64,000 nucleotides of DNA from an uncultured Clostridia bacterium (GTDB lineage: Bacteria > Acidobacteriota > Blastocatellia > UBA7656): positions 993-64,992 of the forward strand of contig CAYXVU010000002.1 of NCBI GenBank assembly GCA_964468725.1, given 5' to 3'. The translations under genes and the position numbers were made by a program. Below, piece after piece: positions 1 to 1,150 of this stretch; position 1 is the stretch's first letter; each line of letters starts with the position of its first letter. Below the pieces are notes generated by a model. It saw only the letters and a list, made by a program, of their open reading frames with translations, made no database searches and was not told where the DNA came from.

Positions 1-1
1 C

Positions 2-1150
2 AAAAGCTACACGGCGGCGGTCTTGATCGAAGAACTGTTGCGACCCGAAAACGCGGCGGCGATTTTGATCGTTGACCCGCACGGCGAGTACAACACTCTT
101 CAAGAGATTAAAGACGCGAAATTCCAATCCTACTTCACTGCCAAAGGTTACGCGCCGGAAGTGAAAATCTTTCGCCCCGAAAAGATCAAAGTACGCTTCG
201 ATACATTGGAATTCGCCGACATCTGTTACTTGCTGCCGGAACTGACCGACAAGATGCGCCACGTTTTGAATACCGCTTTTCGCGCCGTGCGCGACCGTTT
301 CAAACGCGGGCACTACACCTATCAAGACTTTATGGATGCGGTAGCCGAGCAGCGTTACGGCGATGAAAACGACCGCTCCGGTAATCTGACGACGATTGAT
401 GCGCTCGAATGGCGGCTCGATTCGCGCTTCGGTCGAGGATACTCGAAGCATCAAATCTTTTCCGATCACGAACACAATTTGCTGACCGAGATTTTCGTGC
501 CCGGTCAATGCACCGTCTTGCAACTCGTAGACATTGCCGAAAACGAACAGCAGGTCATCGTCGCCGCATTATTGCGCCGCGCCATACTGGCGCGCATGGC
601 GACGCACAAAGGCGAGGTAACGGAGGCGACCAACGACCGTTACCTGCCCTATCCAATCTTCGGATTGCTCGAAGAGGCGCATCGCTACGCGCCCGCAGGC
701 CGCGAAGTCGTCTCTACCAATGTGCTCAAGCAGATTCTCTCGGAAGGCAGAAAGTTCGGCGTCGGCATCGGTTTGATTACGCAACGACCGGGCAAACTGG
801 ACGCCGATGTGTTGTCGCAGTGCATGACGCAGTTCATCATGCGCATCGTCAATCCGATAGATCAAGATACGATTGCCAAAACCGTCGAAGGTGCAGGGCG
901 CAGAATGCTTGACGAGCTACCGGCGCTGACCAAAGGGCAAGTCATCGTTTCGGGAGTAGCGATCAACACGCCGGTCTTGTGTCAGGTGCGCGCGCGGCTG
1001 ACGAGTCACGGCGGCGAGACGATAGATGCGCCGGGCGAGTGGGCGAAGTGGAACTCCGCAGAGAGCCGCGCCCGCCGTGCCGAAGAGCAGAGCATCTTAG
1101 TCAAACCGCAACCGCCTTCGCGCGGGCGCATCGGCGGCATCGAGATTTAA
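2..1150 (+). CDS. HerA/DUF87-family (FtsK-HerA superfamily) ATPase, C-terminal part; the 5' end lies outside the window
   Basis: The reading frame is open from the window edge. The motifs LIVDPHGEYN and GLITQRPGKLD...SQCMTQFIMRIVNPIDQ are typical of the HerA central and C-terminal region. The stop is at 1148-1150. Confidence 0.6.
   Translation, partial: KSYTAAVLIEELLRPENAAAILIVDPHGEYNTLQEIKDAKFQSYFTAKGYAPEVKIFRPEKIKVRFDTLEFADICYLLPELTDKMRHVLNTAFRAVRDRFKRGHYTYQDFMDAVAEQRYGDENDRSGNLTTIDALEWRLDSRFGRGYSKHQIFSDHEHNLLTEIFVPGQCTVLQLVDIAENEQQVIVAALLRRAILARMATHKGEVTEATNDRYLPYPIFGLLEEAHRYAPAGREVVSTNVLKQILSEGRKFGVGIGLITQRPGKLDADVLSQCMTQFIMRIVNPIDQDTIAKTVEGAGRRMLDELPALTKGQVIVSGVAINTPVLCQVRARLTSHGGETIDAPGEWAKWNSAESRARRAEEQSILVKPQPPSRGRIGGIEI

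Follow-up and report, generated by a model that had tools for sequence, protein, structure and literature searches.

A herA gene of probable repair type in a Blastocatellia bacterium and a mobile Type II restriction-modification cassette behind its stop codon

The HerA-NurA machinery of DNA end resection, associated with Mre11-Rad50, is represented by the HerA-NurA complex of Thermococcus kodakarensis (PDB 9X1L; PMC12977600), by S. solfataricus (4D2I), by D. radiodurans (7WRX) and by Thermus HepA. Its HerA proteins have an N-terminal beta-barrel followed by the DUF87 ATPase core. The anti-phage systems SIR2-HerA/Nezha and DUF4297-HerA are built on the same HerA fold and ATPase core, and in them herA shares an operon with an effector gene, SIR2 or DUF4297. 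Restriction-modification (R-M) genes are known to undergo insertion with long target duplication, a process first described in H. pylori (PMC2853133). The criteria of Furuta, Abe and Kobayashi (2010, NAR 38:2428; PMC2853133) call for restriction (R) and modification (M) genes in an insert of less than 20 kb which carries no other mobility gene, and for a flanking direct repeat of more than 30 bp whose sequence is present once where the site is uninterrupted in a related genome. All of these systems have to be compared with the locus considered here, which lies at the left end of a 64,000-nucleotide (nt) stretch, the whole of which is referred to below as the window (GenBank assembly GCA_964468725.1, contig CAYXVU010000002.1, positions 993 to 64,992 of the forward strand). 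The window begins within a herA gene, and an R-M cassette follows the stop codon of this gene.

The locus is probably best explained by the combination of a repair-type herA and a separate mobile R-M cassette. The herA gene would be a vertically inherited chromosomal gene of a Blastocatellia bacterium, encoding a HerA ATPase that combines an N-terminal beta-barrel with a RecA-like core (Walker A and Walker B) and a helical insert. By analogy and homology with 9X1L and 4D2I, this protein could form a hexameric ring pumping double-stranded DNA, and the ring may feed DNA ends to a nuclease in the course of break resection and repair. The nuclease partner would be encoded away from herA in this lineage. 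The R-M genes are considered a self-contained mobile Type II cassette, which would be no part of the HerA system and would have landed right behind the herA stop codon with duplication of the last 52 nt, herA itself staying intact.

The 3' two-thirds of herA (codons 180–561 and the TAA stop) occupy positions 2–1150 of the forward strand. The reading frame (frame 2, bases 2–1147, 382 codons) enters from the left edge and is closed by TAA at 1148–1150. It matches PF01935, the DUF87/HerA central domain, with E = 1.5e-29 (104 bits against a cutoff of 23), and is 100% identical to residues 180–561 of P0001, a 561-amino-acid (aa) protein encoded on one 81-kb NCBI contig; therefore, the gene is intact and is merely cut by the window edge. 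The first codon of the window is the Walker A lysine of GAGKS. The part of HerA encoded in the window further comprises the end of Walker A (K-S), the helical insert, Walker B (LLEEAH), the motifs GRKFG and ITQRPG, and the C-terminal tail. In 113 full-length orthologues there is no variation in Walker A, Walker B, GRKFG or ITQRPG. The protein thus has a P-loop ATPase domain with both the Walker A (GxxGxGKS) and the Walker B (hhhhEEAH) signatures of the HerA family, and the recognition of a HerA/DUF87-family ATPase at the window edge in the first-pass annotation was correct.

The N-terminal region (residues 1 to ~125 of P0001) falls outside the window. In the AlphaFold model of HerA, eight beta-strands are found within residues 5–122 at a predicted local distance difference test (pLDDT) score of ~55–80, no Pfam HAS-barrel match being recorded; this beta-rich N-terminal domain is followed by an alpha/beta core. 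The model was built from a shallow alignment and was used solely for ranking PDB folds. It was aligned over its full length to 9x1m and 4d2i by Foldseek.

Comparison with curated models and solved structures places this protein closer to repair HerA than to defence HerA. The best NCBIfam model for the full-length protein is NF040819 (double-strand-break repair HerA), with 212 bits and a collinear alignment over residues 5–540. The top sequence match in PDB is T. kodakarensis HerA (9x1l, E = 1e-45), followed by S. solfataricus HerA (4d2i, E = 1e-32); the SIR2-HerA and DUF4297-HerA structures rank lower, with E values from 1e-24 to 1e-13. The same ranking, repair HerA ahead of defence HerA, is given by Foldseek with the AlphaFold model. 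In length, in the Walker A, Walker B and sensor motifs and, as far as the model shows, in domain order, the protein resembles HerA of the HerA-NurA machinery, although its identity to the solved archaeal proteins is just ~21–23% in Foldseek alignments. The lineage differs from that machinery in that nurA, mre11 and rad50 are not adjacent to herA.

Distant relatives of this HerA provide the link to repair operons. A search of 1.84 billion representative proteins yielded 354 relatives at E ≤ 1e-30, and a metagenome scan seeded with 28–40%-identical representatives added 80 further loci. HerA is assigned to the repair-operon clade because relatives with ~50% identity occupy repair operons, and its linkage to the partner genes appears to have been lost in this lineage. 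In 7–13 of the metagenome loci the order is complete: Metallophos (Mre11-like), SbcC/Rad50-like, NurA (PF09376, E = 2e-55), a conserved gene of 200–250 aa designated d1, and HerA. The d1 gene is present in 41 of the 80 metagenome loci, and at most loci with 48–53% identity to the window protein it directly precedes herA at a distance of −4 or ~15 nt. Metagenome loci whose HerA is 55–66% identical to the window protein again have no partner gene, and both d1 and NurA are missing at all loci with at least 55% identity. A nurA gene accompanies herA in several of the relatives at 48–53% identity, and none was found in the window or within up to 10 kb of herA in the 83 Blastocatellia loci.

The neighbourhoods of orthologous herA genes were compared in a genome scan with one genome per species, which gave 80 loci with 63–83% identity to P0001 (L-numbers below are labels of the compared loci). 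The records are labelled Blastocatellia or other Acidobacteriota, except ~12 co-assembly metagenome-assembled genomes (MAGs) bearing other labels. Flanks of up to 10 kb on either side of herA were examined; open reading frames (ORFs) of the neighbours were called and clustered, and cluster representatives were checked against Pfam and PADLOC. In the 19 closest species, the gene 5' of herA nearly always encodes a HutI-like amidohydrolase on the opposite strand at a distance of 63–133 nt, and a convergent gene for an FG-GAP protein lies downstream. In these closest relatives herA is a stand-alone transcription unit between divergent and convergent genes. In more distant species, the flanks contain genes for SerS, an FAD-dependent oxidoreductase and small nucleotidyltransferases, with TruA (identity checked with Pfam) and QueG downstream. 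No NurA, SIR2, DUF4297 or secretion genes were found in the flanks of the 80 loci. Profile hidden Markov models (HMMs) prepared from NurA and d1 of the metagenome operons detected nothing at E ≤ 1 among six-frame ORFs of the 64-kb window and of the Blastocatellia loci L001–L083.

Other functions of HerA have to be weighed against these data. According to the first-pass annotation, HerA could drive a defence system, the partner being encoded upstream of the window. Such an anti-phage motor, of the SIR2-HerA, DUF4297-HerA or a new type with the effector upstream or elsewhere in the genome, is very unlikely here. PADLOC models of HerA do match the protein (top model PDLC04105, E = 5e-45), the defence HerA structures are its clear structural relatives, and an R-M cassette adjoins the gene. 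However, the PADLOC matches, like those to the NCBIfam anti-phage models NF042943 (94 bits, cutoff 800) and NF042944 (91 bits, cutoff 850), are strongest in the shared C-terminal ATPase core, and similarity to the defence proteins is weaker than to the repair type. The plain housekeeping neighbourhood without an effector, which the same annotation had named as an observation speaking against its proposal, is what the 80 orthologous loci display within flanks of up to 10 kb, with a divergent housekeeping gene upstream, and by synteny the same would apply to the source genome. Finally, unlike patchily distributed defence genes, herA is kept throughout the class as a core gene whose identity follows relatedness, and its 50%-identical relatives are found in Mre11-Rad50-NurA operons. 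Assignment to the conjugation or secretion ATPases of the VirB4/TraC/TraD kind can practically be dismissed. They belong to the same FtsK-HerA superfamily, and a marginal match to the TraD model TIGR03743 was obtained (19.8 bits), but it is far under the cutoff of 366 bits, the collinear alignment with HerA models and structures contradicts this reading, and type IV secretion genes are lacking from all neighbourhoods examined. It is also conceivable, though unlikely, that the Blastocatellia HerA is a true orphan which lost NurA and d1, acts alone or with a new unlinked partner, and has a role other than classical end resection. The distribution described above, with d1 at most loci and several times also NurA, Rad50 and Mre11 at 48–53% identity and neither d1 nor NurA from 55% upwards, agrees with this possibility, as do the empty HMM searches. 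These searches, however, span the window and up to 10 kb on each side of herA, so that a nurA gene could lie in another part of the genome, as bacteria commonly have unlinked partners; no positive evidence for an alternative partner was obtained.

A repair-clade HerA, encoded by a conserved chromosomal core gene with partner genes unlinked in this lineage, therefore remains the probable reading, and several points weigh against it. The window HerA is no equivalog of archaeal HerA, since its scores are far under the curated cutoffs (212 bits against 970 for NF040819, 148 against 800 for NF040937). The repair role is suggested by homology, neither NurA nor another partner having been found in the loci searched. 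The structural model is only moderate, with a mean pLDDT of 65. For the source genome, the upstream context is inferred from synteny with the orthologous loci. Finally, at least six Blastocatellia lineages have the M and R genes directly after herA, and in two of them (L024 and L170) the start of the methyltransferase gene overlaps the stop of herA; both points leave some room for a functional link.

The R-M cassette of the window is contained in an inserted unit of 2,227 bp (positions 1152–3378, forward strand) between two direct repeats. The first repeat copy (1100–1151) consists of the last 16 herA codons, the stop codon and one further base; the second copy (3379–3430) is non-coding and duplicates the 3' end of herA. 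The copies are identical at 52 of 52 positions, a length far beyond chance expectation for 64 kb. The reading frame of herA remains intact, as the first copy includes its last codons and stop. The unit of ~2.28 kb has a guanine-cytosine (GC) content of 0.47, compared with 0.56 in herA. It encodes a N6/N4 DNA methyltransferase of 328 aa (1391–2377, forward strand; PF01555, E = 1.8e-53; PADLOC MTase_II, E = 4e-67) and a Type II restriction endonuclease of 318 aa (2374–3330, forward strand; PADLOC REase_II PDLC03436, E = 1.6e-57), whose gene overlaps the methyltransferase gene by 4 nt. By their sequences, the two proteins appear to be a cognate Type II R-M pair. No integrase or transposase domain was detected within the 2,227-bp insert.

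Empty sites are available in related species. In L005, L007 and L012, the herA stop is followed by 16–42 nt and then by the stop of the convergent FG-GAP gene, and the herA end is present in a single copy. The window therefore holds what the cited criteria describe: R and M genes in a 2,227-bp insert devoid of any other mobility gene, and a repeat of more than 30 bp which is single-copy at the uninterrupted site, the comparison being made between species. The insertion of an R-M unit exactly at the herA 3' end, claimed from the window alone in the first-pass annotation, is thus confirmed by the 52-nt target duplication, the low GC content and the empty sites. The defence-island context considered likely there was an overstatement. 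Downstream of the cassette, genes for the FG-GAP protein, a TPR-M48 peptidase, a DUF3857 protein and a glycine-betaine ABC transporter follow, and there is no wider defence island around herA in the window.

The mobility of this cassette family is evident from its distribution. Endonucleases with 67–76% identity are encoded in Syntrophobacterales, Chloroflexus, Caldilineaceae, a cyanobacterium, Caldichromatium and Blastocatellia, and across these phyla the endonuclease is always paired with the methyltransferase through the 4-nt overlap. Their relatedness is star-like, with a median pairwise identity of 76%; the Blastocatellia copies are 70–73% identical to each other, which is no closer than to the copies from other phyla. 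The genomic contexts are unrelated: the cassette is situated beside OLD-TOPRIM ATPase and UvrD helicase genes, in an R-M cluster of Chloroflexus aggregans, or, in the cyanobacterium, close to genes of the PIN and Fic types.

Flanking repeats were found around two other members of the family. In the Blastocatellia-like locus L170, which encodes a HerA with 76% identity, a 78-nt stretch from the 3' end of herA is present on both sides of the cassette (4917–4994 and 6978–7055, 77 of 78 positions identical), and L022 resembles the corresponding empty site. In L169, from a Thermosynechococcaceae cyanobacterium, it is flanked by a repeat of 185 nt with 97% identity (3758–3942 and 5991–6175). The duplication length consequently differs within one cassette family (52, 78 and 185 nt). 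A repeat shorter than the assembler k-mer cannot by itself separate an integrated copy from a circle together with an empty site; a pure assembly artefact is nevertheless unlikely because of the L170 case and the cyanobacterial genome record.

In comparison with the insertions with long target duplication described earlier (PMC2853133), the window shares a short insert (2.3 kb) with R and M genes, the absence of a mobility gene, a repeat which includes the end of a host gene and can be aligned to the uninterrupted site, an insert GC content below that of the host, and duplication lengths that vary within the cassette family. It differs in that the host belongs to a new phylum, Acidobacteriota, that species rather than strains were compared, and that one host gene end, that of herA, was hit in several lineages. 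A further difference is that the herA-linked copies of L006, L020 and L024 have no repeat, the right junction of L024 lying beyond the end of its contig, which stops within the endonuclease gene.

Cassettes with the methyltransferase and endonuclease genes (M-R) directly behind herA are found in the window, L006, L020, L024, L170 and the P0371 contig, with four different left junctions; three of the 80 genome loci recovered with herA contain one. Other small modules also occupy this place. In two other species, a different R-M system is inserted in the same spot between herA and the FG-GAP gene (L001:11715–14152 and L004:6153–8623); its endonuclease is NspV-like (PADLOC PDLC03454, E = 1e-80), its methyltransferase has 597 aa (PDLC03310, E = 9e-126), and no repeat flanks it. 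A DUF1800/DUF1501 pair is located there in seven of the closest species. In more distant species, about one-third of the herA-truA spacers harbour a DUF433/DUF5615 module of ~560–620 nt (L039, L049, L060, L061, L064, L072 and others), a putative toxin-antitoxin pair, and a PIN-domain gene is present in three (L055, L059 and L067). Genes with the Fic domain are found further downstream, past truA (for example, in L059 and L067). Duplication of the herA end was not detected around the NspV-like R-M, DUF1800/DUF1501, DUF433/DUF5615 or PIN modules, and only the R-M cassette of the window family has one. Small modules of the R-M and toxin-antitoxin kinds have repeatedly landed in the herA 3' flank.

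How the M-R pair came to stand behind herA so often could be explained in different ways. If herA, the methyltransferase and the endonuclease made up one functional module in the cassette-bearing genomes, a translocase would be coupled to restriction. The gap between herA and M-R is 0–30 nt in five of the six cases, the gene overlaps in L024 and L170 would suit such coupling, and a PADLOC match to mad8 points in the same direction. Still, this is extremely unlikely, as most of the herA genome loci have no cassette, Syntrophobacterales, Chloroflexus, cyanobacteria and others have the same M-R pair without any HerA, the insertion is shown to be secondary by the direct repeats, and in the window itself the methyltransferase starts 240 nt past herA, behind an extra ORF. 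A single ancient, vertically inherited R-M insertion behind herA is neither confirmed nor rejected; separate insertion events are favoured, because the left junctions differ and the repeats are perfect or near-perfect. A further reading can be proposed tentatively, and it is possible rather than probable: in Blastocatellia, the herA 3' end could be a specific target, used repeatedly by one family of integrase-less Type II cassettes moving through long target duplication. This reading would imply at least two independent events, with 52-nt and 78-nt duplications which both end at the herA stop and have different left junctions, the repeat-less copies of other species lying in the same spot. Independently of this, the HerA of the class has perhaps lost NurA and d1 and acts with an unknown partner.

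The herA gene itself is ordinary, and the mobility class of the R-M cassette is already known. The locus is instructive for annotation: HerA beside an R-M system is easily called a defence motor, and here it is a conserved core gene, probably of repair type, which borders on a hot spot of insertion. Long target duplication in a new phylum is cleanly exemplified by the cassette, and the 52-, 78- and 185-nt cases with matched empty sites constitute test material. If targeting is real, and not a consequence of shared ancestry or of recombination via conserved flanks, the cassette and its site could make the duplication mechanism testable. Modest interest attaches to the cassette family's repeated insertion at the herA stop codon, to the HerA partners, which are unlinked or perhaps lost in Blastocatellia, and to the presence of d1 in related repair operons. 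The absence of d1 and NurA from the Blastocatellia loci examined raises the question of the HerA partner in this class.

In bacterial Mre11-Rad50-NurA-HerA modules, the d1 protein may represent a subunit not described before. Its gene is positioned between nurA and herA or just before herA. The representative is L111:5262–5957, and others directly upstream of herA are found in L092, L099, L155, L156, L160 and L163. The N-terminal motif is M.IGKIVKSxSHIxYVCQIYGP...DYAFGRFV. No match to d1 was obtained in Pfam or, by profile search, in PDB; comparison with the HerA N-terminus by hhalign was not significant (probability 2%), and d1 is absent from every Blastocatellia locus examined.

Other features of the window are located around the R-M genes. 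A tentative ORF of 57 aa (1209–1382, forward strand) precedes the methyltransferase gene and shows sub-threshold similarity to DUF1902, HicB-like and UPF0150 proteins (E = 0.01–0.085); it is missing from the related cassettes in L006, L020, L024 and L170. A scan of positions 900–3700 for promoters and terminators gave background level only. The second repeat copy is separated by a spacer of 177 nt (3431–3607) from the convergent FG-GAP-repeat protein gene (3608–4618, reverse strand), which is conserved in the closest relatives and marks the right-hand side of the insertion site there. This spacer has no match in related loci, where its counterparts are 16–42 nt long, and contains a possible 27-codon ORF (ATGATTGATTACGAT...CTATAA).

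Two observations concern the compared loci. In the Syntrophobacterales MAG (L164:3362–6969), the M-R cassette is situated directly upstream of the OLD-TOPRIM ATPase and UvrD-type helicase genes, a Gabija-like pair; unlike the window, this is a genuine defence cluster. In L081:4328–6835, one frame of 835 aa seems to fuse herA with the downstream truA, which could result from a sequencing error removing the stop codon or be a true fusion.

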